DNA of 64,000 nt from Nitrospirota bacterium (GTDB lineage: Bacteria > Nitrospirota > UBA9217), in assembly GCA_963840455.1 (NCBI GenBank), contig CAWIYV010000010.1:96001-160000 (forward strand), in the 5' to 3' direction. The notes beneath the pieces were generated by a model, which made no database searches, was not told where the DNA came from, and saw nothing but the letters and a program-made list of their open reading frames with translations. A program made the position numbers and the translations under genes. Positions 21,688-47,369 of the stretch are shown here, in pieces; within the stretch, counting starts at the first letter, position 1, and each line of letters opens with the position of its first letter.

Positions 21688-21846
21688 TTGAAGCTCCCTG
21701 CAGCATGCTGCAGGGAATCTTCGATCCTCAAGGAATTAGCGTTATTCTGATCGCTCACCAACCCCCTGCACTCGCGGTTCCACTCGTAAACGCAGGGGGC
21801 AAGACCCCGAAGTAAACTGCGTGGATTGAGCTCTCTCCTAGGTTCA
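21688..21846 (+). mobile_element. Non-autonomous palindromic element (TTGAAGCTCCC...TTCA), locus A
   Basis: Matches the copies at 32918, 40657, 49695, 59239 and 31528 (reverse). Confidence 0.8.
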
Positions 21847-21930
21847 GTGGCTGAGGGTACTCCGGACGGAGGTTCCTGTCAACAGGTTCGATGGGACATT
21901 TTTAAGATACCCTGGGCTCGTACCGGGAGC

Positions 21931-22239
21931 TCAGCAGCGGGTGATCAGGACCGTGACGCCTGCTGCCACAGCAAGGACCGCGAGAATGACGCCGCTTCCA
22001 GTGAAGCGAACGTGCAAGAGCGACATCAGGCCGCCCGCGACCAGCCAGACCCCGAAAAGGATGCTCCCTATATGCGTACTGATCTTTTCGCTGCTGTCCG
22101 CGATGAAGAACAGGATGCCGGTCACGATGCCGAGTACGGCGAGGATGATGCCACTTTTCGAGAACGAGATGCCGCCGAGATGGACCAGTCCCGTGAGGAC
22201 CAGCCAGATGCCAAGAAGGATGTTCATCCAGGTCTTCAT
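21931..22239 (-). CDS. 102-aa 4-TM membrane protein with internal duplication, copy 1
   Basis: Intact ORF; two LLGxWLVxxGL..GxILAVL units; three more copies in the window. Confidence 0.8.
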   Translation of the reverse strand: MKTWMNILLGIWLVLTGLVHLGGISFSKSGIILAVLGIVTGILFFIADSSEKISTHIGSILFGVWLVAGGLMSLLHVRFTGSGVILAVLAVAAGVTVLITRC

Positions 22240-22392
22240 AAGGAGGTTCCGTGAGGCAAGTGATTAGCAACCGATACAAATGTTAATTATGAGGCCTGAC
22301 GCCCGATATCCGTGCCCCTTTTTGTTGTTGAAACTTTTTTTTAATGATATAATCCTCCGCAAAAGACAAAAGGGAATATCTGGCCCGCAACC

Positions 22393-23289
22393 ATGGCACT
22401 TCTTAAAAGAATAATTTTTGGATCTTTGATGGCATTAGTCGCCTGCTTCCACGGTTTTGGGGCTTCAGCAGAAGAGGCTGTAAAGGAATTCAGGGTCGGG
22501 CTCATCGGCGTGGATGCGGGACAGATCCTGCAGGATTTCGATCCCTTCGTGGAATATTTGAGAATCCGTCTCAGGCGTTCCGGGATTCGGGATGTAACGG
22601 TCTTCGTCGCAAAGGACCTTGACCAGATGCACACCCGTATACAAGAAGGAAAGCTGGACTTCATTCTCACCTCCCCTTTCCCGATTGTTGAAATGGAGCG
22701 CGATAAACTCGTACCCTCGGTCCTCGCCTGGCAGGGAGCGGCCCGTGAATACTCCGCGGTATTTTTTGTACGAAAACGGAGCTCCCTGCAAGATCTGAGC
22801 GACCTGCAGGGAAAGACGGTCGTTTTCGGGACACCTTCGTCCACAGCGGCATACGCCATGGCTAAAGCCGAACTGAAAAAGAACAAATTATCCATGAGCG
22901 AATCGACGGACGAACATGCGCCCGAATATGCGATTCGGTATGAGTTTGCCGGCGAGGCGATCAACCAGGCATTCCGGGTCATCCTGAACCGGGCGGACGC
23001 CGGCGTTTTCAGCAGCAGCGACTGGTTGGAGCTTCCCCGGAAGGAACGGTCCAAATTACGGATCATTCACCGTACAACGCCGGTCACCCACCTGCTCGGC
23101 TCGTTCCACCCGTCTTTTCCGCCGGCCCTCAGGGAAGTCGTTGAGAAAACGCTGATCGATATGTCCGGGAACGGGAAGGGACGGACTGCATTGGCCACGG
23201 CGTTGAATATGACAAAATTTGAACGGCTGACGGAGGAAGACAGGCGCTCCTTTCACCATCTTAAACAGCTTCTGTCTGCCGCGGAGTAA
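22393..23289 (+). CDS. PhnD/SsuA-like periplasmic binding protein
   Basis: Signal peptide, DLQGKT..FG..SST and ADAG motifs; upstream of a diguanylate cyclase. Confidence 0.85.
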   Translation: MALLKRIIFGSLMALVACFHGFGASAEEAVKEFRVGLIGVDAGQILQDFDPFVEYLRIRLRRSGIRDVTVFVAKDLDQMHTRIQEGKLDFILTSPFPIVEMERDKLVPSVLAWQGAAREYSAVFFVRKRSSLQDLSDLQGKTVVFGTPSSTAAYAMAKAELKKNKLSMSESTDEHAPEYAIRYEFAGEAINQAFRVILNRADAGVFSSSDWLELPRKERSKLRIIHRTTPVTHLLGSFHPSFPPALREVVEKTLIDMSGNGKGRTALATALNMTKFERLTEEDRRSFHHLKQLLSAAE

Positions 23290-23292
23290 ATC

Positions 23293-24654
23293 ATGAGGAT
23301 CAACATCAACAAGAAATACGCTCTCTTCTTCGGTATCAGCAGCGTCGCGATCATGCTGATCCTGGTCGCATCCTTCGCCTTTATTGTGGTCAAGAAAGGG
23401 GCGACGCTCAAGAAGAACATCAAAGTCAATGACGCCGTCTTTTACCGGGAGAGCCAGGGAAAAACGCTCTTCAATATCGCCCAGTACCTGAGTCAGCATC
23501 TTTTCATTCCTCTGTATCAAACCGATATCGGCGCAGTCAACCGCCTGATCAACGACATGAAGCTCGGACTGCCGTTCAAATCGTTTGTCGTGGCCGACTC
23601 GAAGGGCATGATTCTGACCGATGGGTCCCGCCAGAATAACGCTTTTGGAACAAAGCTTGACGTGAACTTGGAGCGGCTGAAGAAACAACCGATCATTGTG
23701 GAAAATACCGAGCAGGGGGAACGCATTTCTTTTGCGATTAAATCAAAAGAACACGTCGCCGGATACGGCCAGCTCATCTATTCGAACGAACCCCTGATGG
23801 CCGCGATAGCAAAAATCCACTCCCTATTCGATTCGGAATGGATGGACTTCGGGGCGGTGTTCCTGCGGATCAGCCTGATCGGCATCGCGGCATCGCTGGC
23901 TGTAGCGGCGCTGCTGAGCTTTCTGTTTTCCGGCACCATCTCCCGTCCGCTCATCCTTCTGAGGCACGCCGCAAACCGCGTCGCGCAAGGCGACCTTGAT
24001 TGCCGCGTTGAAATCGATACCCATGACGAGATAGGAGAACTGGCGGCAACCTTCAACCAGATGGTCGCGGACATGAAGCGGTCGACCGAACAGCTTCAAG
24101 AGGCCAACCGGAAACTTCACGAGGTCTCCATCACGGACGGCCTTACCGGCCTGTGCAATTACGCGCACTTCATGGACGAGCTGAAAAAGGAGGAGGCCCG
24201 GGCCCGGCGGAGCAATTCGAACTTCGGTGTCATCCTCTTCGATCTCGATCTGTTCAAGGAGGTGAACGATACCTACGGCCATGAAAAAGGGAACATCCTG
24301 CTCAGGGCGGTGTCCGACATCCTGAAGGCGAATGCACGGCGAATGGATACCGTGGCGCGCTACGGAGGCGAGGAGTTCGCCATGCTCATGCCGGACAGCA
24401 AAGGTGCGGAGCGGGAGGTGGCTGAGCGCATACGGAAAAAGATCGAAAGCACGGATTTCACGGGTATCGCAGACACCCCCCTCAGGATCACGATCAGCGG
24501 GGGCGTCTGCACCTATCCCCGGGACGCACAGAGCGTGAACGAGCTGCTCGACAAGGCTGACAAGGGATTGTATACGGCAAAGACCGGCGGCAGGAACAAG
24601 ACGTGTTATTGCGAACCGCTCGGCACCTCGCAGGGGCAGGCGGGAAGCTCCTAG
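23293..24654 (+). CDS. Membrane HAMP-GGDEF diguanylate cyclase
   Basis: DEIGELA.TFNQM (HAMP); DGLTGL, FKEVNDTYGH and RYGGEEF. Confidence 0.93.
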   Translation: MRININKKYALFFGISSVAIMLILVASFAFIVVKKGATLKKNIKVNDAVFYRESQGKTLFNIAQYLSQHLFIPLYQTDIGAVNRLINDMKLGLPFKSFVVADSKGMILTDGSRQNNAFGTKLDVNLERLKKQPIIVENTEQGERISFAIKSKEHVAGYGQLIYSNEPLMAAIAKIHSLFDSEWMDFGAVFLRISLIGIAASLAVAALLSFLFSGTISRPLILLRHAANRVAQGDLDCRVEIDTHDEIGELAATFNQMVADMKRSTEQLQEANRKLHEVSITDGLTGLCNYAHFMDELKKEEARARRSNSNFGVILFDLDLFKEVNDTYGHEKGNILLRAVSDILKANARRMDTVARYGGEEFAMLMPDSKGAEREVAERIRKKIESTDFTGIADTPLRITISGGVCTYPRDAQSVNELLDKADKGLYTAKTGGRNKTCYCEPLGTSQGQAGSS

Positions 24655-24875
24655 GCATCAGACCTTGCCGGCGATAACTCAATCTTTACGTCTGACTGTT
24701 CGCACCCCTCAACCAGCGCGCGCGATTGTCAGACTGGAGAGGTCGGCATGATGACGCTGTTAAACCACAATGGGGGCATTTGGGGGAACGTTTTTTCTAT
24801 CCATGATTTATTAGAGGTAGCGGGAGTAAAGCAATCTTAGCCTTATTGATCTGACCACGGCCTCTTGCTCGATGC

Positions 24876-25185
24876 TCAGCGGCGGGTGATCAGGACCGTG
24901 ATACCTGCTGCCACGCCAAGGACCGCGAGAATGACGCCGCTTCCGGTGAAAGCGAACGTGAAAGAGCGACACCAGGCCGCCCGCGACCAGCCAGACCCCG
25001 AGAAGGATGCTCCCTATATGCGTACTGATCTTTTCGCTGCTGTCCGCGATGAAGAACAGGATGCCGGTCACGATGCCGAGTACGGCGAGGATGATGCCAC
25101 TTTTCGAGAACGAGATGCCGCCGAGATGGACCAGTCCCGAGAGGACCAGCCAGATGCCAAAAAGGATGTTCGCCCAGGTCTTCAT
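24876..25185 (-). pseudogene. Membrane protein copy 2, +1 frameshift near 24950
   Basis: 310 bp versus 309 bp for the intact copies; extra A in GTGAAAGCG. Confidence 0.75.
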
Positions 25186-25516
25186 AAAGAGCCTCCGTGC
25201 GGGAAGTAGCCTGCCTCCAGGAGGAGCGTTCATGATGAATCGTGACACAAGGTAGGCCTCCCGATAACGTGAGAATATAGGAATTGGTTTGGTGCGTTAA
25301 CTGCTCAACGAAAATTAAAAGGCCGAGAGGTAATTCCTCCGGCCTTCTGTCAATTCAAGCAATGTGACAACTCAAGTATAAACATGAACGATGCGGTGCT
25401 GGGCAAAGATCAAACTGCACGACCTGACCCTAAGTAGTCCTTGATAACTGACTGGGGACTCTCTGATCAGGTCAATTTGGCCCGCAACGTCCCCTCTGCC
25501 TGCACAGATGAGGCGA

Positions 25517-26200
25517 TTAGAACGAGGATATTTCTCGTTCCTTACCGCGGGAAGGGTTCTGACTGACAAGGGCCTCGATGGCGCGCTGCGCAGCGGGGTC
25601 AATACGGGAGAACCGTACGCCGTAGCGGCCCCCGTCATTCCTCACGATCTCCGCCTGCATCGAGAAGGACCTCGCGGGGGCAAGGTCGAGCGAATACCGC
25701 AGCAGGTCGCCCCGGTGCAGCTCGGCATCGGCTTTGATCAGCATGCCCGTCACGCTGATGTTCTCGGTGAGGCAATCTATGGACATACGCGTGGCCCCGC
25801 TGATCCGGGCGCTGAACTGCGCGTGGAAACTGCTGCGGGCGGGAATGCTCAGGAGCTCGTTGACCTTCCGGCGAAGCACGTCTCCGCGAAGCGGCAGCGT
25901 CAGGACAGCATTGGCCCTGCACTGGGCGGCCTCCCCGAGCTCGATCTCGTTGTTGCGGCAGCACACGATGATCGAGACATCGCGCAGTTCCCCGTCATCC
26001 CGGATCTGGGTGCAGAACTGCTTGGTGCTCATGCCCGAGCCGTAGAGCTCGGTGATGATGAGGGCCGCCTTCTCCTTGCGGTGGATCTTCAGGGCGTCGG
26101 CGTTCGAATATGCCGTGAGCACCTCGAGGTCGGACAGCTCCTCGAAGAAATCAAGGCCTACGTTCTGCTTGACGCGGTCGGTGAAGATGATCTTTTTCAT
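25517..26200 (-). CDS. Degenerate receiver plus PilZ domain protein
   Basis: Receiver-like N-terminus; NISVTGM and YGVRF PilZ features. Confidence 0.78.
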   Translation of the reverse strand: MKKIIFTDRVKQNVGLDFFEELSDLEVLTAYSNADALKIHRKEKAALIITELYGSGMSTKQFCTQIRDDGELRDVSIIVCCRNNEIELGEAAQCRANAVLTLPLRGDVLRRKVNELLSIPARSSFHAQFSARISGATRMSIDCLTENISVTGMLIKADAELHRGDLLRYSLDLAPARSFSMQAEIVRNDGGRYGVRFSRIDPAAQRAIEALVSQNPSRGKEREISSF

Positions 26201-26444
26201 GACAAGTGCCTCCCCCCAAGCACGGGATATTCCCGCGTGAGTGCCGGTACGAGGCGAAGGTCTGCAAGACGAACAGGGAGATAAAGGACGAGCAGAGTGT
26301 CGAGAGCGCGCCGCATCCTGCCGTGCAGGTGTTAGAGAAATGATAACACCGATCTACTCCGCTTTCCATACAATATTTATGGTCTTTTTTTTGGACGGAG
26401 AGGCGGAGGCTGGCCGATAGACTCCGCATCAGAATCCGGAGCGC

Positions 26445-27134
26445 TCAATGCTGCGCAACGCTCGCAACTGCGTCCCCCAGGCACTCCACATCGGGCAGGG
26501 CCACCATTGCAGCCGCCTTCCTGGCATCCCTGATCTCCTGGGCATTCAACTGCCATCCGTAGGTCTTCGACCGCATCAGGTTTTCATCAGAGTCCTGGCG
26601 ATGGGGCAGGGACAAGCCGTGACCGCACTCATGGGCGGCTGTGCGCGCTGCTGGATGCCGGGCGGGATGTTCGGCAGGCCTTAGAATGGGCGTGTCGCGC
26701 ACCTGGATGTCGTGGTCGCTCCGAAAGTACCCGTTCAGACCAGTGCCTCCCTGCAGTACCGGCTTGAACCAGATGTCCATGCCCTGCTCCAGGGGCTCGT
26801 CATCCAGAACAATCTGCATTATGAAAAAGATCCCGGCCTGGGACAGCCAGATATGGTTGATCTCGTCCAGGATATCCTTGAACTCCTGCGGGTTGCGCCC
26901 GCTTTCTCCGAGATGGACGCGGAGCGGGATGCGATAGACAGGGCCCAGAGGAAACGATGGGGCAAGGCAGCCATCGATGTGGACAGAGGCCAGCTGTTGC
27001 TGGGCAGTGTCTTGCGCAGCGGATACAGCATCCAGGGAGAGCAACACAAGAACTACCATCGACAGAAGTGCGGTGTTTTTCAGGACTGCCTGAAGCCGAT
27101 CCCGATGTTGATAGTACCCCTTGACAATGATCAC
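26445..27134 (-). CDS. Zinc metallopeptidase-like exported protein
   Basis: HECGHGLSLPH (HExxHxxxxxH) and NLM Met-turn. Confidence 0.7.
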   Translation of the reverse strand: MIIVKGYYQHRDRLQAVLKNTALLSMVVLVLLSLDAVSAAQDTAQQQLASVHIDGCLAPSFPLGPVYRIPLRVHLGESGRNPQEFKDILDEINHIWLSQAGIFFIMQIVLDDEPLEQGMDIWFKPVLQGGTGLNGYFRSDHDIQVRDTPILRPAEHPARHPAARTAAHECGHGLSLPHRQDSDENLMRSKTYGWQLNAQEIRDARKAAAMVALPDVECLGDAVASVAQH

Positions 27135-27666
27135 GGTATCTCCGCCTGAAGAGGATGGTACAGCACAGGGAATGCTAACTCTGAACACGGGGATATTGCA
27201 ATACTGAAAGAAGACCTCATTCATGATGACGAGACCGGTACCTAAACATAAACAGAAGGCCGGAGAGATCATCTCTCCGGCCTTTTCATTAATACAGTAT
27301 GCGACATCTCAATAACTACGGAATAAAGTCTAAACCAACCACCACCCTGCAGCAGCCGGTGCCGGATGACTGACAGACACTGCCTTGCCGGGCGGTGCTA
27401 AGTATCAGGCCGTGAGTGGACTGACGGCCAACCGGCTTCGTATCCAATAACAGTTCCATCGTTCTCTGCATACCAAAGATTCGTCCTGCACGCAGACAGC
27501 CGCGTCTTGCCTGTCGAACGATCCCTCGCCTTCAGTATCCGCCTGAAGAGAGAAAGTCCGACGAAGTTCAACAGGCGAAGGTCGCGTATATGCTTCATGT
27601 GAACGTTCATGGGAACCACTCTTTCCTGAAAAAAGCACGCCCTGTACTACTCTTTGCCGAATGAAA

Positions 27667-27921: not shown

Positions 27922-28788
27922 CTATATAATGACCTTTTGATCACGGACCCTGAGATGGGCGGTACATGTCCTTGCCACGAGCGGGTTCGCGAGTTCGGGC
28001 GGGATCCCCAGGTCCTTCAGGACGCATTCGGACAGTTCCTGCAGATCCGGATGGCTGCTCTGGTGCGAACACCGTCTGACCGCATCATGGATGCGCTGCA
28101 GGTACTCCAGGCCCGCATCCATGCGATCGTAGGCCATGGCCCCGGTGCTCGGTTCGTCCCAGGAAGGAAGAAGAAAACGGATGCCCTGCACCGCCTTCAG
28201 TCTTTTTATAGAGGCGACCGAGGCCAGGACATCCTCGTAGATCGGCAGTTCGCCCGGGACCGGGATGGCGTCTCCCGAGAAGAGCACATTGTATCCGAGC
28301 AGCAGGATGGAGAGCGAGCCTCGCGAATGGCCCGGCGTGTACAGCACGTTCAATTTCAGGCCGCAGCCCAGGTCAAAGACCTCGCCGTCTTCGAGCAGCC
28401 TGTTCACGGCAAGCGATCCGGCGACGAGCGTATCGAAATCAGGCACAGGCCGCTCCCCGGCCTGAAGCTGAACGTTCTCGATCCATGCCCTTTCCGCGGG
28501 ATGAGCTGCGACCGAGCACGCCGTTTCTCCCTTAATGGTCCTGGATGCGCCGATATGGTCCGGATGAGCATGCGTCTGGATGATCAGCGAAATATCGCTT
28601 ACTTTCCGGCCCGTACTTCGCACATAGTCGAAGATCGCCTGCTCCGCTGACGCCACGCCGGTGTCGATAAGAAAGACCCCCTGCGTGCCGTAGATGAGAT
28701 AGACGTAGACGAACCGGTCCACGAACCCCTGCGGCATCAGGATGCGGAACGGGACCTTGATAGCGTGAACGTGCCTGTCGATCTGCAA
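27922..28788 (-). CDS. MBL-fold metallo-hydrolase
   Basis: LIDTG, THAHPDHIG, TPGHS and SGDA motifs; probable TTG start. Confidence 0.9.
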   Translation of the reverse strand: MQIDRHVHAIKVPFRILMPQGFVDRFVYVYLIYGTQGVFLIDTGVASAEQAIFDYVRSTGRKVSDISLIIQTHAHPDHIGASRTIKGETACSVAAHPAERAWIENVQLQAGERPVPDFDTLVAGSLAVNRLLEDGEVFDLGCGLKLNVLYTPGHSRGSLSILLLGYNVLFSGDAIPVPGELPIYEDVLASVASIKRLKAVQGIRFLLPSWDEPSTGAMAYDRMDAGLEYLQRIHDAVRRCSHQSSHPDLQELSECVLKDLGIPPELANPLVARTCTAHLRVRDQKVII

Positions 28789-28976
28789 GGTAGTGAATGT
28801 TCTCCGCGAGCATACTATCGAATCTAATAACATTATGCAAGGCGAAACAGGAAAGGAATGAAAAGGCCGGAGAGCATATCCCTCCGGCTTTTGTCGATCA
28901 CAGCGATGTGACATCGCAATAACTACGGAATCAGGTCTGACCGCTTACGACTATTACGAATGTCCACAGCCTAGGC

Positions 28977-29284
28977 TCAGAGGCGGGTGATCAGGGCCGT
29001 GACGCCTGCTGCCACAGCAAGGACCGCGAGAATGACGCCGCTTCCGGTGAAGCGAACGTGCAAGAGCGACATCAGACCGCCCGCGACCAGCCAGACCCCG
29101 AGAAAGATGCTGCTATCTGCGTAGCGAGCTTTTCGCTTCCGTCCGCGATGAAGAACAGGATACCGGTCACGATGCCGAATACGGCGAGGATGACGCCGCT
29201 TTTCGAGAAGGAGATGCCACCGAGATGGACCAGACCCGTGAGGACCAGCCAGATGCCAAGAAGGATGTTCGCCCAGGTCTTCAT
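28977..29284 (-). pseudogene. Membrane protein copy 3, -1 frameshift near 29110
   Basis: 308 bp; similarity continues in another frame to the TGA at 28977. Confidence 0.75.
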
Positions 29285-29632
29285 AAGGAGACTCCGTGCG
29301 GTAAGTGATCAGCTTCCGGTAAGAATGTTAATTATGATGCCTGATCCTGGACGGACTTGAATCTTGTTCTTTACGCGTGCAACTTTTTTATCCTTTTCTG
29401 AATACCGTGAAAATATACCCCGTTTATTATGGGCTCTCCCTCTTGACTCCTGCTATAATTTAATCATGCAGTTTTCGGTACCCCTTAATTGATAGACCCT
29501 GACAAGGAATGCACGCGAACACAAAGAGGATGAAAGTGATTAAAATTGTTTATGGTTATGATCAGGGAGTTGTTTACCTTATATTAACCTTGCAAGCGCA
29601 TGCTTGCACATCTAACGAGTAGGAGGAAAGAA

Positions 29633-29944
29633 ATGAAGAAAGTTATTTTTTTGACAGGAGTATTAGTTCTTGGGTTGGCTTCGTTTTCGGGACAGGCCGC
29701 ACTCGCCGGCGAAACAACAGGTGAATATATCGACGATGCTACGATCACTACACAGGTTAAGGGGATAATCGCTAATGACATGGAGAGTCGTTTTTTCAAG
29801 ATCGAAGTGACGACAACAAAGGGAGAAGTTGTTCTCAAGGGATCTGTGAACAGCAATGATACCGAAGCACGGCTGGTAGGAAAGATCAAAGAGATCAAGG
29901 GCGTCAAATCCGTGAAGAGCCTCTTGAAGGTGGAAAAGAAATAA
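29633..29944 (+). CDS. BON (OsmY-like) domain protein
   Basis: DDATITTQVK, GEVVLKGSV and GVKSV motifs; AGGAGG RBS. Confidence 0.9.
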   Translation: MKKVIFLTGVLVLGLASFSGQAALAGETTGEYIDDATITTQVKGIIANDMESRFFKIEVTTTKGEVVLKGSVNSNDTEARLVGKIKEIKGVKSVKSLLKVEKK

Positions 29945-29978
29945 TGACGAAGAGGCATTCTGTGAAAGGGTAGGCTTT

Positions 29979-30030
29979 GGGGTCAGATCTTTATCGTCAA
30001 CATCGATGTCAACAATAAAGATTTGGCCCC
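29979..30030. repeat. REP-like palindrome GGGGTCAGATCTTTAT...ATAAAGATTTGGCCCC
   Basis: Inverted repeat; related palindromes at 37690-37741 and 38807-38873. Confidence 0.7.
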
Positions 30031-30209
30031 TTTTATTGAACATTTATTATGAGTGGCAGGACAAAGGAAGGAGGTGCATGTCAAACCGCAAGACTTGATC
30101 CTAATAACCGTCCTACTCCCCCAATCGTCAAAGAAAGCAGCGTAGCAACAAAGGCGATCTAGCCCTCAGATATCTCCTTCCCCTTAAGACATGTAGTTGA
30201 ATGACAAAC

Positions 30210-30310
30210 ACCGAAGTCAGGCAGGTTCACACGTTCGTCATGGTTCGTGAAAAGGACGTGCTCGATAACCTCGCGGACATGATCCTCGGCTTCTGTCACC
30301 GAAACGCCAT
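30210..30310 (-). pseudogene. GPW/gp25 baseplate-protein gene fragment
   Basis: EDHVREVIEHVLFTNHDERVNLPDFG resembles the gp25 motif L.T.PGERV..PDFG. Confidence 0.55.
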
Positions 30311-30545
30311 GCGTCCTTGGGTTCGAACACCGCCCTTTGCGGCCTGTCGTACAGGCTCTCCGCCACAAACAGGCGGAGGTGTCGCACCGGCACATATTTC
30401 TACTGGCAGCGTGAAGCTATGCCAGCATTCGGTAATCGTGTACCGCTTCTGGCGGTCGGGAAATGACCCGCCAGATCATCATGTGCTAAGCCTTGTCCGG
30501 CAACGGGAACAAGCGACGTCCTGTGCGGGCATGAGTTGGCGGCAT

Positions 30546-30628
30546 GCCCTTTCCGCGGGATGAGCTGCGACCGCACACGCCATTTTTCCCTTAATGGTCC
30601 TGGATGCGCCGATATGGTCCGGATGAGT
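30546..30628 (-). pseudogene. ~83-bp duplicate of an internal part of the MBL hydrolase gene (28486-28569)
   Basis: Near-identical sequence by eye. Confidence 0.85.
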
Positions 30629-31511: not shown

Positions 31512-31527
31512 GACGCGAAAAATAGAC

Positions 31528-37759: not shown

Positions 37760-38578
37760 TCAGAAATACCAGGTGAAGTTGACGTAGCTGGCCAGGTCGG
37801 TCAGATCGTACCGGTACCGCTCGTCCTCGTAGGATGGGCCCGCTGCGGTCACCGTGAGGCCCCAGTTACGGTACCGGGCCTCCAGCATGAGGCTGGCGGC
37901 GAATTTCAGGCCATAGTCTCCGTTCGAGATCGCGACCGGCGTTGTGTTCGCCGGATAATCCAGGATGATGGAACCGTCGTATTTGGCCGCACCCAGGCCT
38001 GCCCCGACGCCCAGCCGCACGTAGGCGCCCCGTCGACCATGTTCGCCTAACTGATAGAAGACCGTCGGTACAACATATGCGACCCTGCCCCGCACGCGGG
38101 TGCCGACGTCCTGGTACACGTTCTTCGCCACTTCCTGCTGGTCCATGTTGAAGGTGGTGTAATTGAACAGGAATGCGTAGCCGAAGCGGGTGCTGCGAAT
38201 GAACGACGGCCGGGTGCTGTAACTGATGAAGTAGGCCTCTTCGTCCCGCTGGGATATCTTGCCCGAAGCATTCGTGCTCTTGTCGGTGACGCGCAGGTCT
38301 GCCTGTCGCGTCCCGATCCCGACGGTCAGGCTCGCGCCGTTGTACAGGTAGTCCCATAGCCATTTCCAGAACGTGGTCGGACCGGACCGTTTCTCCGGCG
38401 CGACAGCCCCGGGTGTGGCGGATAACCCGGAACTGACCTGGGAAATAACGTGGCCCGCCTGACGGGGCTGTTCCGCACGAACGTGTCCGGAGCTCACGGT
38501 CAGGAGCGCAAGGACCGCGGCGCAGAGCATGCCGGATTGTATTCGCACGGACCATGCACGAGGAGTGCGGTAGATCAT
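37760..38578 (-). CDS. Putative outer-membrane beta-barrel protein
   Basis: Signal peptide, amphipathic strands and C-terminal aromatic residue (WYF). Confidence 0.68.
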   Translation of the reverse strand: MIYRTPRAWSVRIQSGMLCAAVLALLTVSSGHVRAEQPRQAGHVISQVSSGLSATPGAVAPEKRSGPTTFWKWLWDYLYNGASLTVGIGTRQADLRVTDKSTNASGKISQRDEEAYFISYSTRPSFIRSTRFGYAFLFNYTTFNMDQQEVAKNVYQDVGTRVRGRVAYVVPTVFYQLGEHGRRGAYVRLGVGAGLGAAKYDGSIILDYPANTTPVAISNGDYGLKFAASLMLEARYRNWGLTVTAAGPSYEDERYRYDLTDLASYVNFTWYF

Positions 38579-38740
38579 GACCGGAGGGTAGCAGGAGGGA
38601 GAAGGAATGTCAACGGGAAGCACTATCCCTCCCGGAGCACCCCATGAAGGTCATTAGAATTAAATGACAAGTTTGGAAACAAAAAGGCCGGAGAGACTTT
38701 CTCTCCGGCCTTCCAAATTCTTTCGTAACTAAACTGCTTC

Positions 38741-38797
38741 TTAGAACATCCCGTCGCCCATGCCGCCGGGCATTCCGCCCCCCTTCTCCTCGGGCAG
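38741..38797 (-). repeat. Orphan groEL 3' tail (reads [18 protein letters not shown]-stop)
   Basis: Matches the GroEL C-terminus [13 protein letters not shown]...GMY-stop; 30 nt from the hairpin at 38686-38710. Confidence 0.92.
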
Positions 38798-38909: not shown

Positions 38910-39233
38910 TCAATGGACGGAAATTACGCAGTTATTGGTTCCGAACGGATTGGGAACCAATTCCGAGCATTTCTGGTCCGACGCCCACGCCCCATCGACG
39001 AAGTACTTGTACTCGTACTTCCCTGGCGGCAATTTCAATTTGATCCTCCAGGTCCCGTCCTTCTCTTTTTTCATGGGCGTTGAACTCGTATCCCATGCAT
39101 TGAACTTTCCCGCGATGCAGACCGTCTTGGCTTCCGGCGCACGGCAGGTAAACTCTACCTCATGCGTGGCTTCGGTCATCTGCGGCCCGATGAGGGACCC
39201 GCTCCTCTTCTTGACAACGTCTAACACTGCCAT
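38910..39233 (-). CDS. Glycogen-binding (CBM48/AMPK-like) domain protein
   Basis: AG.FN.W, G.YEYKY.VDG.W and NPFG..N motifs. Confidence 0.88.
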   Translation of the reverse strand: MAVLDVVKKRSGSLIGPQMTEATHEVEFTCRAPEAKTVCIAGKFNAWDTSSTPMKKEKDGTWRIKLKLPPGKYEYKYFVDGAWASDQKCSELVPNPFGTNNCVISVH

Positions 39234-39267
39234 ATCAGTTACCTCCTGTTCGTGATTGTGAACTCCC

Positions 39268-40149
39268 CTACGCTGCCTTTGCCACCTTGCTCTTCCACTC
39301 CGTGGCGATCTCCTTGACGAAAGCGTCAAAGGTCCGGGGCTTGTGCTCAAGGAGCATCTGCGTCTTTTCGAGGTCTTCCTTGGAGGCGATCATCCCCTTC
39401 TCCTGGAAGAACTCGTACATAATGCGCATCTCGGGGACCATGAACTCCGGCATCAGGTTCTTCACCTTTTCTCCCCAGGCGTCCAGGTCGTCCCCGCTGT
39501 AGCGGACCTCCCGTCCCAGGTGCTTGGTGTAGACCCTGGCGGTCCCATCGCCGGTCAGGGTATCGGGTCCGTGAACCGCATACGTCTGGCTTTCGTAACC
39601 GGACCTCATGAGCGCGTTGACCGCACAGTCTGCGATGTCGCGCACATCGACCCGGTTCAGCCCCTTCCCGCCGATGGGCTGGGGATAGACGCTGTACTGC
39701 ATGATCGCGGACCGCAACCCCAGGTCGTTCTGGAAGAAGTTGTTCGGCCGCAGGATCGCGTAGGCGATCTTCGACTCCTTGATGGCCTTCTCCACCGGGA
39801 GCTTGCTCCGGAAGTGCGGTATCTTTTCCGATCCTTCGGGCATGAAGACCGACAGGTAGACGATCTTCTTGACCTTGGCCGCCTTTGCCGCGGAAACGGC
39901 AGCAAGCCCTTCATCGGTTTCGCTCAGTCCCACCGTGTTCAGCAGGAACAGGCTGTCGATGCCTTCGAATGCCTTGGGGAGCGTCTCGGGATCATCCAGG
40001 TCCGCCTTGTACCCTTCCACGCCCTTTGGCAGCTTCTTCAGTTTTTCCGGGGAATGGCTCATGACCCGGACCTTCACTCCCTCCTTCATCAGGCCGGCCA
40101 CCACCATGCTTCCGACCGTACCTGTTCCACCTATGACGAGTGTCTTCAT
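39268..40149 (-). CDS. NmrA-like atypical SDR
   Basis: GGTGTVG, LRPNNFFQN and VDVRDIA motifs. Confidence 0.9.
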   Translation of the reverse strand: MKTLVIGGTGTVGSMVVAGLMKEGVKVRVMSHSPEKLKKLPKGVEGYKADLDDPETLPKAFEGIDSLFLLNTVGLSETDEGLAAVSAAKAAKVKKIVYLSVFMPEGSEKIPHFRSKLPVEKAIKESKIAYAILRPNNFFQNDLGLRSAIMQYSVYPQPIGGKGLNRVDVRDIADCAVNALMRSGYESQTYAVHGPDTLTGDGTARVYTKHLGREVRYSGDDLDAWGEKVKNLMPEFMVPEMRIMYEFFQEKGMIASKEDLEKTQMLLEHKPRTFDAFVKEIATEWKSKVAKAA

Positions 40150-40656
40150 ACCGTACCTCCTGCCGCTGCTCACCGGAAGTCTTCATATTATGTGTTATGT
40201 AATCGAGTTGGACGAGAAGATGCTTACGTGAGGGGACTCTTTAAGTCTCGCACCGATTGGGCAGGAAGTCAATGGCGCCGCAAAATATAGTGTCTATTAG
40301 TACTACACTCATAGCGCTGACGAATGCGCTTGGGAAAAGGCAGCGGCTTCAGTTTTATGCTTTTTCGATCAGATCAATCCCTTTCGAACTTTCCAAGCGG
40401 GCGACCGAGCGAAGCGATCAGGACCTTTGACGCAGAAGAAGCGGATTTAAACGACTGATAAAGGCTGCAGGATCTTAGACACTGAGGACCTGAAGAATCT
40501 TGGAATAAAGAGAGGGACGTCAGGTCTTTTCATTCATAGCTTATGTCAGTGTCCACAGTGTCAAAACCGTTCAACGGCTTTGGGAACAGCATTTCCTACG
40601 TTGCTTTGCTAATGGTTCTTCAGAATCATAGCGGGGAAGACTTAATTATGGAGATA

Positions 40657-40815
40657 TTGAAGCTCCCTGAAGCAAGGTGCAGGGAATCTTCGATCCTCAA
40701 GGAAGTGCTATTTATTCTAATCGCTTGCTAATCCCCTGCACTCGCGGTTCCACTCGTAAACGCTGGGGGCAAGACCCCGCAGCAAGCTACGGGAATGCGC
40801 TCGCTCCTGGATTCA
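40657..40815 (+). mobile_element. Palindromic element, locus D
   Basis: Full unit with the ~42-bp internal module. Confidence 0.8.
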
Positions 40816-40920
40816 GTTACGCCGAGGAAGATTAAAGGGGAGATGGCAATCGAAGAAACAAAAAGGCCGGAGAGCTTGCTCTCTCCGGCCTTTGATTTGC
40901 TACTCGTGTTTCGGTACGAC

Positions 40921-40962
40921 TTGATACATCCCGCCGCCCAAGCCACCCATTCCGCCGGGCAT
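40921..40962 (-). repeat. Orphan groEL 3' tail (reads MPGGMGGLGGGMY, stop mutated TAA to CAA)
   Basis: 30 nt from the hairpin at 40865-40890. Confidence 0.88.
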
Positions 40963-41010
40963 CGTGAAAGGCCAACAAGTCAATAAGTCAAGCCTGGCCC
41001 CAAACTATCC

Positions 41011-41742
41011 TTAGTTCTTTTCCGGCGGTGAATCAGGTGCGTAGGTTGCCTGTATGAGCCGATACCAGACGCTGTCCACTTCCTCTCTCGTTCGCAGGAT
41101 GTACCCCTCGTTGCTGATCGTCGGGAAGAACTCATTGCCCCTCTCCCGCTCCTGAGCGGCAATAATCTTCATCATCTTGATCTGTTCATAGCAATCATCC
41201 ATAGTCAGCCCATGACCGCACCCCAGCAAATGATACCCCTCATGCACCGCTGTGCTCTCCGGATCGGCGAAGCTCAACAGCTGGTTGAGTGAACCCAACT
41301 CGACGACTGCGAAGCCCCGTGTAAATGTTTGTCCCTCAACAACGCCTAATACTTCGGGCATGATGATCCCCCAGAAAAAATCACCCGTATGTCTCCCTGC
41401 TAGACCGAAGATCCGGTCGCATGGAGGAACGAGAGGCATGTTCATGACGCCGACAAGCTGGGTACTGGACCAAAAGCCCGGCCTGTCCCACGGTGCGAGC
41501 CATGGGTACGTTACCTCTATGCCGTATAGTCGCAGCTCCTCTTGGAGTGCCGCCTTGATCTCATCCGTCCGCTCCTGGGAAATCTCCCGGTCCTTCAGGA
41601 GGCACACCCGCATTGTCGCTGGGGAGCCAAAATCGATCTCTCCCCTTTTCGCCGCGTCAGGAACACCGATGGTCGTACATCCCATGACCATTGCGGTGGT
41701 CGCGAGACAGAGCAAGCGGAGCATGACGGGGAACGTCTTCAT
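41011..41742 (-). CDS. Putative lipoprotein with an HExxH zinc motif
   Basis: VMGC lipobox and HEGYHLLGCGH. Confidence 0.7.
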   Translation of the reverse strand: MKTFPVMLRLLCLATTAMVMGCTTIGVPDAAKRGEIDFGSPATMRVCLLKDREISQERTDEIKAALQEELRLYGIEVTYPWLAPWDRPGFWSSTQLVGVMNMPLVPPCDRIFGLAGRHTGDFFWGIIMPEVLGVVEGQTFTRGFAVVELGSLNQLLSFADPESTAVHEGYHLLGCGHGLTMDDCYEQIKMMKIIAAQERERGNEFFPTISNEGYILRTREEVDSVWYRLIQATYAPDSPPEKN

Positions 41743-41743
41743 A

Positions 41744-42964
41744 TCATTGCCCCCCAGGCCCATCGCTCACGATCTGACCGCGCAGCGCTGATACGGCAGA
41801 AGTGAGTTGACGATCGATCGAGATGTCGTCGTGTTCCCACAGCTTATGTGAATGGATCCTCCGGAAAACGGCCTCTTTCTCCAGGGCCGATAGTTCGATC
41901 GTCTCATGGGGTTGTATTCCACTGTTTTCGATCGGCTCTCCGGACGCCGTCTTAATATAATGCGTCCGTATGACGAGAAGCGATCCGTCCTTAAGCTGAA
42001 AACCCGCCCTCACTTCGCCGTTGCCTGCGGTCTTTTCCCCGATGAGAAGAGCGCGCTTCTGATCGCGCAGCGCAGCCGCGAACATTTCAGCACCTGATGA
42101 CGTAGTTTCGTTAATAAGGACTGCCAGGGGAAGATCGGGATAGTGCGTCCACCCGTCTGACGTAAAGGTGAGGTCCCGCTCCGGGGTCCGACCGCTCAGC
42201 CGGCCTATGTGGGTGCCCCGTTCAAGAAAGAGCTGGACGGTTTTGGCCGCGGAGTCAACATCGTAGCTGACGTCCCTCAGATCTATGATCAGTCCCCGCA
42301 TGTTCTCCCGCAGAAGGTGTTTCACTGCACTTTTCACTTCCTCAGGGGCTTGTGCATTGAATGATCTTATCCGGAGATAGCCGATGTTCTTTTCAATGAA
42401 CTGCTCGGCGACCGGGGGCTCCCAGTCGAGGACGCCCCGGGTTATCGTGAGCTCCCTCGTTTCGCCCCCCGCGCCTGCGATCGTTACGTCGACATTGGAT
42501 CCGGGAGCGCCTTGGAGGCCTGCAATGACCATCATCGCCGAGTGCCCGTTGACGGGTTCATTGTCTATTTTGATGATCCTGTCGCCCCGCTTCAGCCCCG
42601 CACGGCGCGCTGGCGAATCCTCGATGAGCGCCTCTATCCTTGTTTCGCCATTCTTCACTCTTATGGCAATTCCGATCCCTGCCCGGAATGGATTATTGAT
42701 CTGGACAACCCTTTTCCAGCTGAGCCATTCTGCTGACGGTCCAAGCTGCGCCAGAAGCGAACCGACCTCGGGCCGTTTGCCGACATCGAGGGTGACTCCT
42801 TTTCCTGCCGCGTCGATGCAGTTCTCCTCAATAATGCTCCGTGCTTGATCAAAGACTGCGGATAGCTGCTGGGGAGGATAGGTCCTAGGATATTTGGCCG
42901 CGCAGCCGGAGACTGCAAGGATGACAGCGCAGGCCGACAATAGGGGAAAAACAATCTTCAGCAT
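41744..42964 (-). CDS. S41 (CtpA-like) PDZ peptidase paralog, lipoprotein
   Basis: PDZ domain GIGI..SPA..AGL; IGYLRIRSF, IIDLR and GIQP motifs. Confidence 0.85.
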   Translation of the reverse strand: MLKIVFPLLSACAVILAVSGCAAKYPRTYPPQQLSAVFDQARSIIEENCIDAAGKGVTLDVGKRPEVGSLLAQLGPSAEWLSWKRVVQINNPFRAGIGIAIRVKNGETRIEALIEDSPARRAGLKRGDRIIKIDNEPVNGHSAMMVIAGLQGAPGSNVDVTIAGAGGETRELTITRGVLDWEPPVAEQFIEKNIGYLRIRSFNAQAPEEVKSAVKHLLRENMRGLIIDLRDVSYDVDSAAKTVQLFLERGTHIGRLSGRTPERDLTFTSDGWTHYPDLPLAVLINETTSSGAEMFAAALRDQKRALLIGEKTAGNGEVRAGFQLKDGSLLVIRTHYIKTASGEPIENSGIQPHETIELSALEKEAVFRRIHSHKLWEHDDISIDRQLTSAVSALRGQIVSDGPGGQ

Positions 42965-43176
42965 TTTCTGGTCAGGGTTGAACCGGGTCAGACTTGATTC
43001 TGGAGTTATTGCTATTGAATACAATAAGCGCAACGTACAGGAAAGAACTGCCGCACTGCTTCTTCCGATGCTGTGAGAATATCGAAATTGGCTTGGCGAG
43101 TCAACGAAAGAATAAAAGGAAAGGCCGGAGATATCTCTCTCCGGCCTTTCAGTGATTCATCATTCGCGCTGATCAA

Positions 43177-45093
43177 TCACGCCGCATCCTTGCCCTTCAC
43201 ACCCCCCGTCATGAGTTTCGCCATGGACCGGGCAAAGGCCGCCGGGTCCTTGATCTTCGAACCCTCGAGCAGCAAGGATTGGTTGTACAGAAGATCGATG
43301 TATTCCTGCACCTGTTCCTCTGCCCCGCTCGTGAGCATGCTGTTCATGGTCTCGAACACCGGGTGACCTGGATTGATCTCCAGGATCCGCTTCTGGTCAG
43401 GGACATCCTGGCCCATGGACTTGAGCAACTTCTCCATCTGCGGGTCGAGCCCGCCCTCGTCCGCCACCAGGCAGCTTGCCGAGTCCGTGAGCCTGCCGGA
43501 CAATCGCACGTCCTTCACCTCGTCCTTGAGCCGCTCTTTGAACTTCGCAAGCAGCTTCTCGAACTTGCCCTTCTGCGCTTCCTTCTCCGAATCCGTCGTC
43601 TTATCCAGGCTCACATCGCCCTTAACCACGTTCTTGATCTTCTTGCCCTTATACTCTCCAAGGTCCAGCATGATCAGGTCGTCGATGTCGTCGGTCAGGC
43701 AGAGGACCTCATAGCCTTTCGTGCGGAAAGCCTCGAGGTAGGGCGACTGCAGGATGTTCTCGTCAGGCCTGCCGGTGATGTAGTAGATCGCGTCCTGGGC
43801 GATCGGCATGTCCCGAACATAGTCGGACAGGGTCGTGTACTTCCCTGCTTCGGTCTTGGTCGAAGAGAACAGCAGAAGATCGGCGATCTCTTCCTTCCTG
43901 CTGACATCGAAGTGGATGCCTTCCTTCAGCACCCTGCCAAACTCCTTGTGCAGCTTCTCGTAGGCAGATGCATCGTCCTTCTTCATCTCCGCGAGGGCGT
44001 CCAGCACCTTCTTGGTGATGCTCTTCCTGATCACCGCCATGTGCCGGTTGTTCTGCAGTATTTCGCGCGACACGTTCAGTGGCAGGTCGGACGAATCCAC
44101 CACGCCGCGCACGAAGCGCAGGTACTCGGGCATCAGCTCAGCACAGTGGTCCATGATCTGCACGCGCTTCACATAGAGCATCGGCCCGATCTTGAAGTCC
44201 CGGTACAGGATACCGTAGGGCGCATGCTGCGGGATGTAGAGCAGGGCCGTGAACTCCGACGTACCCTCTGCTCGGTAGTGGATCACCTTCGCAGGGTCGG
44301 TATAGTCGTGGGACACATGCTTGTAGAAGTCGTTGTACTCTTCCGGTTTGATCTCCGACGGGTCCTTGAGCCAGATCGCCTTGCGGGCGTTCAGGGTCTC
44401 TTCTTCGGTCGTCTTGATTCTCTTTTCCTTGTCAGCGGGGTCTTCCTTTTCCCGCGTCACGTCCATGACCACCGGATGCTCGATGTAGTCCGAGTATTTC
44501 TTAACAACGTCGCGGATCTCCCACTCTTCGAGATACTTCTTATCGTCGTCCCTGAGGTGCAGCACAACGTCAGTGCCCGGCTTCTCCCTCGTAGCGTCAT
44601 CGATGGTATAGGTCCCGTCAGCGGTCGATTCCCACTTGATCGCCTTGTTCGTCTTCTCCGTCGCCTTGCGCGAGATCACGGTCACCCGGTCTGCCACCAT
44701 GTAGGATGAATAGAACCCCACGCCGAACTGGCCGATGAGTCCCGGCTTGTCCTTCTGATTCGCGTCCTTGAGCGCCTGCATGAACTCCCTCGTGCCGGAG
44801 TGGGCGATGGTCCCGAGCTCGGCAACAGCCTCTTCCTTTGTCAGGCCGATGCCGTTGTCATTGATCGTGAGGGTGCCAGCTACCTTGTCCGGGACGATCT
44901 TGATCTTCCACTCCCCGCAGGCTTCCGTTATTTCCTTGTTCGTCAGGGACTCGTGGCGCGCCTTGTCGATGGCGTCCGAGGCGTTCGAGATCAGCTCGCG
45001 CAGGAATATCTCCTTGTGCGAATAGAGGGAGTGGATCATCAGGTTCAGCAGCTCTTTTACTTCGGTCTTGAACTCCATTTTCTCAACGGCCAT
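43177..45093 (-). CDS. htpG: Molecular chaperone HtpG (Hsp90)
   Basis: FLRELISNASDA, IGQFGVGFYS and LPLNVSRE motifs. Confidence 0.97.
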   Translation of the reverse strand: MAVEKMEFKTEVKELLNLMIHSLYSHKEIFLRELISNASDAIDKARHESLTNKEITEACGEWKIKIVPDKVAGTLTINDNGIGLTKEEAVAELGTIAHSGTREFMQALKDANQKDKPGLIGQFGVGFYSSYMVADRVTVISRKATEKTNKAIKWESTADGTYTIDDATREKPGTDVVLHLRDDDKKYLEEWEIRDVVKKYSDYIEHPVVMDVTREKEDPADKEKRIKTTEEETLNARKAIWLKDPSEIKPEEYNDFYKHVSHDYTDPAKVIHYRAEGTSEFTALLYIPQHAPYGILYRDFKIGPMLYVKRVQIMDHCAELMPEYLRFVRGVVDSSDLPLNVSREILQNNRHMAVIRKSITKKVLDALAEMKKDDASAYEKLHKEFGRVLKEGIHFDVSRKEEIADLLLFSSTKTEAGKYTTLSDYVRDMPIAQDAIYYITGRPDENILQSPYLEAFRTKGYEVLCLTDDIDDLIMLDLGEYKGKKIKNVVKGDVSLDKTTDSEKEAQKGKFEKLLAKFKERLKDEVKDVRLSGRLTDSASCLVADEGGLDPQMEKLLKSMGQDVPDQKRILEINPGHPVFETMNSMLTSGAEEQVQEYIDLLYNQSLLLEGSKIKDPAAFARSMAKLMTGGVKGKDAA

Positions 45094-45653
45094 GGTTCAC
45101 CTCGTGAAAAGAATAGAACATTCTCAATCGGGTCTTTGACACTGAAGAAGCAACGGTACCGAAATCGTTTCTCTGATAATGACGCAGAAAAAGAACAGGA
45201 TCTCTTTTTTGCACCTCTCCTTCGCGTCCTGAATGAAATTCTTGACCTTTCTAAGGCCACGTCCGCTCGCCCGCGCAAATTCGGCCTGTGGCCTCTGACA
45301 TGCGCGTTCGCCCCAAGGGGATGCTGCCTTTGGCCAAGACGGGTGCCCAAGAATTTCATAGGGCCGCTCCGGGGAAGTGCGGGGTTTGGGTAAAGACTTG
45401 GATATTTTCTTTTCGCTTTTCCAAAAGCCCCTGCATCCCGTGAACAGTACCGCGCACAAGCATGCGGAAGCATTTATGACCAGTGCTATCACAAGGCCAA
45501 GCAGACATGGCCGAGCTTGTCGTCCGGGCGAGGGGAAGTGCTGCTATGCTCGAACAGCTCTCTAGCTCCGACCGGCATTGCATGCCTGCGCGGACTGTGA
45601 GCCGGGGTGCAGAAAAAACTAGATTCTTTTGATAATGTATGTTGAGAGAAAAA

Positions 45654-45679
45654 GGCCGGAGAGATTGCTCTCTCCGGCC
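45654..45679 (-). terminator. groEL intrinsic terminator
   Basis: GGCCGGAGAGA-GCAA-TCTCTCCGGCC-TTTTT, 30 nt after the stop. Confidence 0.88.
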
Positions 45680-45709
45680 TCGATAATGATACGTTGCTTC
45701 GCGAATGGC

Positions 45710-47369
<1,660 letters not shown>

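Follow-up and report, generated by a model that had tools for sequence, protein, structure and literature searches.

Copies of the groEL terminator hairpin punctuate a variable gene array downstream of groES-groEL-htpG in a Nitrospirota bacterium

Introduction

How does the terminator of a chaperonin gene come to stand ten times among unrelated genes, in places with a scrap of the chaperonin gene still attached? The question is raised by a 64-kb stretch of DNA from a Nitrospirota bacterium (GenBank assembly GCA_963840455.1, contig CAWIYV010000010.1, positions 96,001 to 160,000), referred to here as the window. Downstream of groEL, at positions 21688-45712 (0.60% of the 4.03-Mb source genome, G000), homologous hairpins separate ~10 unrelated blocks of genes, and we call this region the array. 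A sequence-only reading had interpreted it as a polarised, integron-like series of cassettes, inserted one after another at the GGM-coding tail of groEL by an integrase acting in trans. The titles and abstracts that we searched contained nothing on groEL-terminator arrays, nor on such arrays in Nitrospira.

We compared the array with five sister genomes of the genus (G001-G005), a genome of another genus (G009) and a further genome (G011), and used 64 genomes of the family for gene-level identity. From these comparisons, we suggest that the array is a hotspot of duplication and insertion associated with the terminator hairpins, and we weigh this against explanations that invoke a site-specific recombinase or a purely local history.

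Results

Ten homologous terminators lie in one orientation

The groEL hairpin, GGCCGGAGAG-ATTGCT-CTCTCCGGCC followed by a T-run, begins 30 nt past the groEL stop. All ten hairpins listed by the sequence-only reading are present in one orientation (Table 1), and each carries its T-rich run on the minus strand, which is the groEL strand. When the exact 26-mer was searched with up to three mismatches, it matched four places in the window and none in 100 shuffles. In the whole genome, the sites found inside the array were five of seven with no mismatch in either arm, 8 of 11 with at most one mismatch per arm (binomial P 2.6e-16) and 9 of 46 with at most two; the hairpin at 25321 is too diverged for the arm pattern and was recovered through repeat family D6. 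With 8 of the 11 sites in 0.6% of the genome, the hairpin is not evenly spread. Among 195 strong terminator-like hairpins of G000, the groEL family accounts for 13 and every other family for four at most. Local low-copy direct-repeat pairs have a hairpin in both copies in 4 of 144 cases, two of which lie in the array.

Every one of the ten hairpins is predicted to fold stably (-17.2 to -26.2 kcal/mol, z-scores -3.6 to -6.3) and is followed by a U-run, and seven of them are among the sites listed by a minus-strand terminator scan, where they hold the top ranks. The hairpins are 24-26 nt long, with perfect stems of 10-13 bp, loops of 3-7 nt and no bulged bases. Both 10-nt arms have the consensus sequence in seven of the ten G000 copies, while loops and flanks diverge. 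Across 38 hairpins from eight genomes, a set picked by a pattern of at most two mismatches per arm that limits the visible variation, 8 of the 13 stem pairs were altered on both sides, and none of 500 shuffles reached the observed values. The stem is therefore maintained through compensatory change. The groEL terminator of the GGCCGGAGAG/CTCTCCGGCC type is kept in at least five genera of the family.

We also noticed that minus-strand open reading frames (ORFs) end 30, 30, 120, 199, 329 and 172 nt upstream of hairpins 45654, 43123, 40865, 38686, 31271 and 25321, respectively. Because ORF ends lie 30-330 nt upstream at these six, the hairpins look like terminators of successive units, not free-standing sites. 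Hairpin 35004 closes a plus-strand DUF1579 unit, and only hairpin 33188 follows no ORF, so the earlier statement that most of the hairpins do not follow a real gene stop was too strong. A position 3' of a gene or operon end holds for six to eight of the ten. Each module copy is, by prediction, a strong intrinsic terminator closing one transcription unit.

Orphan gene tails stand beside the hairpins

The three orphan groEL tails reported in the array were confirmed by alignment. In all of them, the distance from the stop-equivalent codon to the hairpin is 30 nt, as in groEL itself, and the weak trace beside hairpin 33188, GCGGATTACATAAGCC at about 33255-33270, is visible as well. A genome-wide search for the tail and hairpin together, which the sequence-only reading had proposed, returned four matches in G000, all at the array, and none in the reversed control. 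Judging by these parts, the modules descend from the groEL 3' end and consist of a coding tail, a 30-nt spacer, a GC-rich hairpin and a U-tract, together ~100-170 nt.

The closest match of these tails is not the groEL end of their own genome. Tail 1 is 81% identical to the groEL end of G011 versus 75% to its own groEL end, and tail 2 is 80% identical to an orphan tail of G004 versus 69% to its own groEL end. Upstream of the tail, a leader of ~45 nt is common to tails 1 and 3. This leader is not derived from groEL, because in local alignment to groEL it does not score above shuffles; we accordingly rejected decayed groEL sequence as its source and judged the gapped alignments to be noise. The likeness of leaders between G000 and G004 is not significant.

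Similar scars were observed at two other genes. An orphan copy of the DUF1579 3' end lies at hairpin 35004, on the strand opposite to groEL tail 3, and in G001 a hairpin is found directly 3' of the DUF1579 gene. In G002, an orphan htpG tail (L002 7349-7522), ~50 codons long and interrupted by a stop, has a hairpin beside it, 8.6 kb below the intact htpG; the ten ORFs between the intact and the orphan copy, among them a PIN/DUF6364 pair and ankyrin-repeat, phospholipase C-like and C92 peptidase genes, contain no mobility domain. Orphan groEL tails beside family hairpins were also found in G004 (three), G001 (one) and G005 (two degenerate ones, judged by eye). The retained groEL tails measure ~30, 33, 42 and 57 nt, the DUF1579 tail 69 nt and the htpG tail ~150 nt. 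Because the scar also occurs at htpG in G002 and at DUF1579, with a duplicated length of ~30 to ~170 nt, the common element is the hairpin and not a GGM-coding attachment site. The duplicated stretch is whatever is found upstream of the hairpin. Some orphan tails are apparently common to several species, which indicates that they are old.

Hairpins join different neighbours in different genomes

The adjacency of groEL and htpG is kept in four fetched loci, from three genus genomes and one other genus; htpG adjoins groEL in G002, G004 and, in the other genus, G009. The array had been described as polarised; a strict polarity with the newest insertions next to groEL does not hold, since this adjacency is conserved and yet all orphan groEL tails of the window lie beyond htpG.

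Which genes follow groEL, and in what order, varies across all genus genomes examined, so that the comparison of relatives suggested by the sequence-only reading gave no fixed order. In G005, a 4.3-kb hairpin-bounded insert encoding a methyltransferase and a PAS histidine kinase separates groEL from htpG. The same insert-htpG unit is found in G001 on another contig, behind an orphan groEL tail, and in G001 a pair of hairpins, spaced by 170 nt, comes after groEL and precedes other genes. The distal blocks recur with 84-93% identity in G003, the closest relative, which has no match to a 314-nt piece with hairpin 25321 or to a 1.65-kb BON segment. In addition, its DUF1579 and 378-aa blocks are in reverse order compared to G000, and the 378-aa gene is tandemly duplicated (L011 16885-17667 and 17904-19037) with a family hairpin after each copy. 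A metagenome contig (run X8) contains a join consistent with the G003 order of these two blocks. The proximal cargo, at 35-43 kb, has almost no DNA match in the five genus genomes. The S41 peptidase gene of the array reaches no more than 43% identity to any gene of the 64 family genomes, whereas the conserved ctpA is located upstream of groES; in metagenomes, this S41 cargo was found on four short contigs (one with 96% identity over 1650 nt), none of which reaches a module.

In a comparison of 35 hairpins from eight genomes, with 70 nt taken to the left and to the right of each, the left flanks grouped by gene, as groEL tails or htpG tails. The right flank of the orthologous htpG hairpin comes in three kinds, one in G000, one in G004 and one in G002 and G005. 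The G004 kind is common to G000 hairpins 33188 and 40865, to one G003 hairpin and to the true groEL hairpin of G011, and the G002/G005 kind is common to the G001 hairpin located 170 nt after groEL. The G000 kind is common to hairpin 25321, a likeness judged by eye and outside the flank-comparison pairs. On the evidence of these flanks, the hairpin copies are the points where left and right neighbours meet in combinations that differ between genomes.

A scan of public genome contigs for the tail and hairpin gave 77 loci, four of which, titled as Nitrospirae, Nitrospiraceae or Nitrospiria metagenome-assembled genomes (MAGs), hold a true groEL end with its hairpin. No arrays outside the phylum were identified in these loci, the other 73 being known by their titles, with sequences not inspected. 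In 6 of the 10 loci from relatives (L001 and L006-L010), the contig ends within ~7 kb downstream of groEL or inside groEL. This suggests a practical consequence, namely that the module repeats interrupt the assembly of short reads around groEL in this Nitrospirota group.

A proposed hotspot that would need no recombinase

Taking these observations together, we consider it an even call that the array is a hairpin-associated duplication and insertion hotspot needing no recombinase. We hold with the same half-confidence that the locus is a long-lived hotspot of gene gain and gene shuffling downstream of groES-groEL-htpG. The junctions of this hotspot, as far as the aligned loci tell, coincide with the terminator modules. 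The groEL 3' module, with its tail, 30-nt spacer, hairpin and U-tract, would have been copied repeatedly, and new DNA would enter at or beside the hairpin; the blocks, which would carry their own promoters, may then be duplicated, lost and re-ordered without a dedicated recombinase.

Three routes could lead to this arrangement. The first is single-crossover or unequal homologous recombination between module copies, and the second is tandem duplication followed by hairpin-to-hairpin deletion. The third is replication stalling at the hairpin and template switching, an idea from the literature on replication-based rearrangements. Each route would duplicate the stretch just upstream of the hairpin and so leave an orphan gene tail as a scar.

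Alternative explanations

In a purely local history, one or a few old segmental duplications of the groEL 3' region with its neighbours, and then deletion, decay and gene turnover, would have shaped the array, and the hairpins would have been kept as terminators with no role in recombination. Several features fit such a history. The array contains four copies of a small transmembrane (small-TM) gene, two REC-PilZ genes, a fragment of the metallo-beta-lactamase (MBL) gene and the DUF1579 tail, and its distal half was visibly built by local segmental duplication. In addition, the groEL tails fade with distance from groEL, some modules look orthologous (tail 3 and an orphan tail on C322 of G004 are both downstream of a SurA_N_3-like gene), and the flanking chromosome also shows indels between G000 and G003. 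However, across genomes the same hairpin is found with different flanks and the same flank with different hairpins, the scar recurs independently at three genes in at least four genomes, and the proximal cargo is species-specific and divergent. The orphan tails that are nearer to the ends of other lineages than to their own point in the same direction. Local duplication has clearly played a part, but alone it is insufficient because it leaves the flank reassortment and the species-specific cargo unexplained, and we regard this history as unlikely.

Site-specific accretion would instead involve small elements that carry the groEL tail and hairpin as an attachment (att) site and were inserted in tandem by a recombinase encoded elsewhere or since lost. 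This would account for the direct repeats with the target gene 3' end that flank blocks of unrelated genes, for orphan modules of one lineage that stand beside different cargo in G000 and G004, for the leaders next to the tail that are common within a genome, and for the unusually uniform hairpin arms of G000. Tandem accretion with later loss of the integrase is documented, with entry at either att copy, in the part of PMC5704250 that treats it. The position of htpG next to groEL is thus not fatal to accretion, because new elements may enter at either copy.

The search for an enzyme gave little to sustain this explanation. Family searches covered 73 ORFs at 19.6-47.8 kb and 38 flank ORFs outside this interval, and we found no integrase, resolvase or transposase in the window, no match to PF00589 and no hidden recombinase among the unassigned ORFs of the array, in agreement with the earlier remark that no integrase lies within it. 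The source genome contains only two intact tyrosine-recombinase genes, which we assume to be XerC/D-like, no resolvase and one broken IS200-like gene elsewhere. The genome search for a tyrosine recombinase or HUH transposase that the sequence-only reading had called for therefore produced no candidate linked to the array. In the five sister genomes, none of the 43 integrase matches listed is on an array contig, and the arrays of six genomes contain no integrase or relic of one. The 1.5-4.7-kb blocks are free of mobility-gene remnants.

The sites themselves also argue against site-specific accretion. The duplicated segment varies both in length and in source gene (groEL, htpG or DUF1579), the loop length varies from 3 to 7 nt, and the sites are unlike attC as the relevant part of PMC4889954 gives it. 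Nor was a phage or plasmid found to carry the module: in viral contigs, three pattern matches were all chance matches in coding DNA without a hairpin, and in plasmids the one short match (32 nt, E 1e-3) was at chance level. With length and source gene varying and no candidate enzyme, serial integration at the GGM tail by a trans-acting integrase is probably wrong, and accretion of att-bearing elements in general seems quite unlikely.

As a separate observation, the broken gene, the sole IS200-like Y1 transposase gene of G000 (C10:393728-394087), has an in-frame TAG and adjoins a stretch that resembles a tRNA gene by eye; the hairpin that flanks this transposase gene has no relation to the groEL hairpin family. 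We considered a link to REP-associated tyrosine transposases (RAYTs) and their repetitive extragenic palindromic (REP) sequences and rejected it, since this is the only Y1 gene and its flanking hairpins are unrelated.

An unrecognised gene-capture system is a further, distinctly improbable explanation. The hairpin module would be the recombination site of this Nitrospirota lineage, promoter-bearing blocks would be inserted and excised there and exchanged between strains, and the catalyst would be an enzyme outside the known recombinase families or a factor of the host that acts on the hairpin in its folded form. If this were true, accessory stress genes would accumulate behind a heat-shock operon.

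We find it very doubtful that the hairpin serves as a sequence-specific signal in RNA or DNA, such as a regulator site or an mRNA stabiliser of a stress regulon, with selection and gene conversion maintaining its uniformity and the array forming a co-regulated stress cluster. Uniform arms with variable loops in G000, the retention of this terminator type in other genera and the stress-type domains of the cargo (Hsp90, S41 protease, SurA_N-like, BON and a weak DUF308 match) are consistent with such a signal. However, the compensatory changes indicate that structure and not sequence is selected, the orphan coding tails are left unexplained, and neither a binding protein nor an Rfam family matched.

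Misjoined contigs can practically be dismissed: the groEL frameshift described below means that an essential gene carries one single-base indel at least, and base-level errors therefore exist in the assembly, but the repeats are short (26-170 nt) with each copy different, 29-30 of 30 array bins are covered by Logan contigs of four runs that belong to four studies, independent contigs bridge hairpins 38686, 28865 and 27258, and homologous arrays are present in five other assemblies. Most of the joints reported from the Logan contigs are cross-matches among copies of dispersed repeats.

Since an enzyme system is disfavoured and local duplication alone is insufficient, we favour recombinase-independent processes at the hairpins. 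Several points weigh against this preference. The insertions and rearrangements are read from contigs, and none was observed directly. The uniform arms in seven of the ten G000 copies would also fit a sequence-specific binding protein or a recombinase, and the non-groEL leader of ~45 nt common to orphan modules within one genome is what an element end beside an att core would look like. A homology of 26-100 nt is short for RecA-dependent exchange to be efficient, and the present data do not separate the three recombinase-free routes. The relatives are fragmented MAGs whose contigs often break at this locus, so that some of the apparent rearrangements could be binning or assembly effects. Finally, the view of the cargo as a stress island rests on domain names.

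Genes, blocks and other repeats of the window

The blocks between the hairpins are 1.5-4.7 kb long and contain one to four genes on both strands with promoter-like flanks (Table 1); in a promoter scan of these flanks two sites passed, and the scan total was not above chance. The claim that the hairpins bound blocks of unrelated genes is supported. Family searches also bore out the cargo that had been listed, apart from a supposed beta-barrel protein (287 aa, 37760-38623) that matches no family, and htpG, the first block, had been left out of the list. Many of the blocks look stress-related by their domain names. The GC content of the array is 0.51-0.59 versus 0.58 genome-wide, slightly poorer and not decisive.

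The only groEL copy of the genome has one extra base compared to a sister genome, which splits it into ORFs 47031-47369 and 45710-47161; the open frame encodes 497 aa, versus 511-593 in relatives. Because groEL is normally essential, the frameshift is probably a sequencing indel.

The plus-strand DUF1579 unit also holds a small ORF and begins with a cyclic di-GMP (c-di-GMP)-I riboswitch that scored 45.1 bits against a gathering score of 35. An Rfam scan at gathering thresholds gave only this riboswitch and a tRNA. The array that holds the riboswitch also contains two REC-PilZ genes and GGDEF genes. The orphan MBL fragment at 30543-30627 is 95% identical to 28484-28568.

Two families of dispersed repeats are present in addition to the hairpins. 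The first has more than 200 copies genome-wide, in units of ~80-110 nt with the palindrome CCCTGCAGCATGCTGCAGGG, on all large contigs and often in tandem. It occupies gaps of the array at 21673-21847, 31516-31631, 32903-33085 and 40645-40829, occurs elsewhere in the window at 49693-49968 and 59237-59619, and is found in all genus genomes. It looks like a miniature inverted-repeat transposable element, and no enzyme was identified for it. The second, of ~400 nt, starts 24 nt past the groEL terminator; in G002 and G009 the gap holds a copy of the groES-upstream region instead.

The element at 31354-31532 looks non-coding and is kept at 86-90% in the five sister genomes, above many genes here, with no Rfam match. 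In three of them at least (G002, G003 and G005), it is adjoined by a family hairpin. It could be a small RNA or a small ORF with its own terminator.

Outside the array, 6 kb from its distal end, positions 11554-16008 encode a complete nonhomologous end-joining set, with two Ku proteins, a LigD primase-polymerase and a LigD phosphoesterase-ligase. This segment has no match on a G003 contig that is otherwise collinear there.

Table 1 Features of the array and of the adjoining groE region, from groES to the distal end.
Feature	Coordinates	Strand	Basis and remarks
CIRCE-like inverted repeat, perfect, upstream of groES	47773-47799	+	0 mismatches to consensus; 0.01 expected by chance
groES	47466-47732	-	Cpn10, E 3.5e-26
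groEL, only copy in genome	45710-47369	-	frame broken by one extra base near 47189
Hairpin 1, groEL terminator	45654-45679	-	30 nt past stop; -26.2 kcal/mol
Second dispersed repeat, ~400 nt	45187-45630		lies in the groEL-htpG gap; up to 35 overlapping matches elsewhere in genome
htpG (Hsp90)	43177-45093	-	E 1e-131; adjoins groEL in several relatives
Hairpin 2, htpG terminator	43123-43146	-	30 nt past stop; then promoter-like flank common to hairpin 10 (by eye)
Block: S41 peptidase paralogue (41744-43033), 250-aa ORF without family	41011-43033	-	S41 closest relative 43% identical
Orphan groEL tail 1, stop lost (40921-40962)	40921-41010	-	alignment; leader ~45 nt common to tail 3
Hairpin 3	40865-40890	-	arm pattern, folding
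Block: NmrA-like (39268-40173), CBM48/AMPK-CBM (38910-39350)	38910-40173	-	family search
Orphan groEL tail 2, 18-aa peptide	38741-38797	-	alignment; closest to G004 orphan tails (80%)
Hairpin 4	38686-38710	-	repeat family, folding; bridged by independent contig
Block: 287-aa ORF without family (37760-38623), AAA_33 kinase (36957-37565), SurA_N_3-like (36073-36903)	36073-38623	-	
Orphan groEL tail 3, decayed (35060-35092)	35060-35139	-	alignment; has the leader common to tail 1
Hairpin 5	35004-35029	-	orphan 3' tails on both sides
Orphan DUF1579 3' end copy	34900-34968	+	90% to 34462-34530; 35 nt before hairpin 5; covers last 67 nt of DUF1579
c-di-GMP-I riboswitch (33739-33816), DUF1579 gene (33980-34528)	33739-34528	+	riboswitch upstream of DUF1579
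Hairpin 6 (33188-33212) and weak groEL-tail trace	33188-33270	-	downstream flank common to hairpin 3
378-aa coiled-coil protein, two zinc-ribbon-like motifs	31626-32762	-	weak family matches only
Hairpin 7 (31271-31296) and adjoining element (31354-31532)	31271-31532	-	conservation in sister genomes
Small-TM copy 4 (30748-31130), orphan MBL fragment (30543-30627), BON gene (29600-29944, +), small-TM copy 3 (28975-29344)	28975-31130		
Hairpin 8	28865-28889	-	repeat family, folding
Metallo-beta-lactamase-fold gene	27922-28914	-	family search
Hairpin 9	27258-27282	-	identical, plus 2 nt either side, to hairpin at matching G003 place
Block: 275-aa ORF without family, REC-PilZ (25517-26200)	25517-27272	-	
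Hairpin 10, most diverged	25321-25344	-	repeat family D6; its 314-nt piece without G003 match
Distal end: small-TM copy 2 (24811-25248), phosphonate-binding and HAMP-GGDEF genes (22393-24654, +), small-TM copy 1 (21917-22299), dispersed repeat (21673-21847)	21673-25248		

Discussion

Most transfer hotspots that are free of mobile elements have no visible junction marks, whereas here the junctions are marked by a hairpin and a duplicated gene scrap. Because three genes and several species show this mark, the mechanism is testable. If terminator hairpins seed insertions, the boundaries of transcription units would be linked to genome plasticity, and it would be explained how new genes come with an insulating terminator already in place. 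Should an enzyme take part, the array would represent a new cassette system outside the integron family.

Among known systems, cis-mobilizable elements (CIMEs) and tandem integrative elements, as covered in part of PMC5704250, resemble the array in their direct repeats with a target gene 3' end, and the three orphan groEL tails, each in direct orientation with spacer and hairpin, are repeats of the attL/attR kind. In this comparison, they correspond to a gene end that was displaced or duplicated. Arrays of integrative elements at gene 3' ends can also be devoid of integration genes and grow by tandem accretion, according to the same part of that source. In contrast to CIMEs, our array shows neither an integrase nor a relic in six genomes, no linked or spare recombinase and no constant crossover core. 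Its blocks of 1.5-4.7 kb contain ordinary regulatory and stress genes, the duplicated segment comes from three genes in variable length, and the sole shared feature is the terminator hairpin.

Integron arrays and attC-site clusters without integron-integrases (CALINs) are alike in having one family of palindromic sites between unrelated genes and, in CALINs, no neighbouring integrase, as described in part of PMC4889954. By that description, an attC site is an imperfect palindrome that has R and L boxes, a central spacer left unpaired, and extrahelical bases. The array instead has perfect stems in 24-26-nt hairpins followed by U-tracts, which by alignment do not resemble attC, and it has no intI or attI. 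Integron cassettes rarely hold promoters and are mostly promoterless single ORFs behind one promoter; the array differs in its multi-gene blocks, which use both strands and have promoter-like flanks and, in one case, a riboswitch. Of the integron-like cassette array proposed earlier, what survives is thus a variable, cassette-like and module-bounded array derived from the groEL 3' end, whereas attC features and an enzyme are missing.

REP sequences and bacterial interspersed mosaic elements (BIMEs) are short GC-rich intergenic palindromes of one family that follow genes, are associated with RAYT transposases and are dispersed in tens to hundreds of copies. The array has one-family GC-rich palindromes after genes as well, but only ~11-16 good copies are present per genome, most of them at one locus, and there is no RAYT.

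Horizontal-transfer hotspots carry species-specific genes beside a conserved core operon without mobility genes, and the array is like them in this respect. It differs in being punctuated internally by the terminator and the coding tail of the core gene itself, which points to a specific junction-forming process. The array is therefore best filed as a variant of accretion hotspots, with the gene's own terminator and coding tail as a recurring junction for its distinguishing mark.

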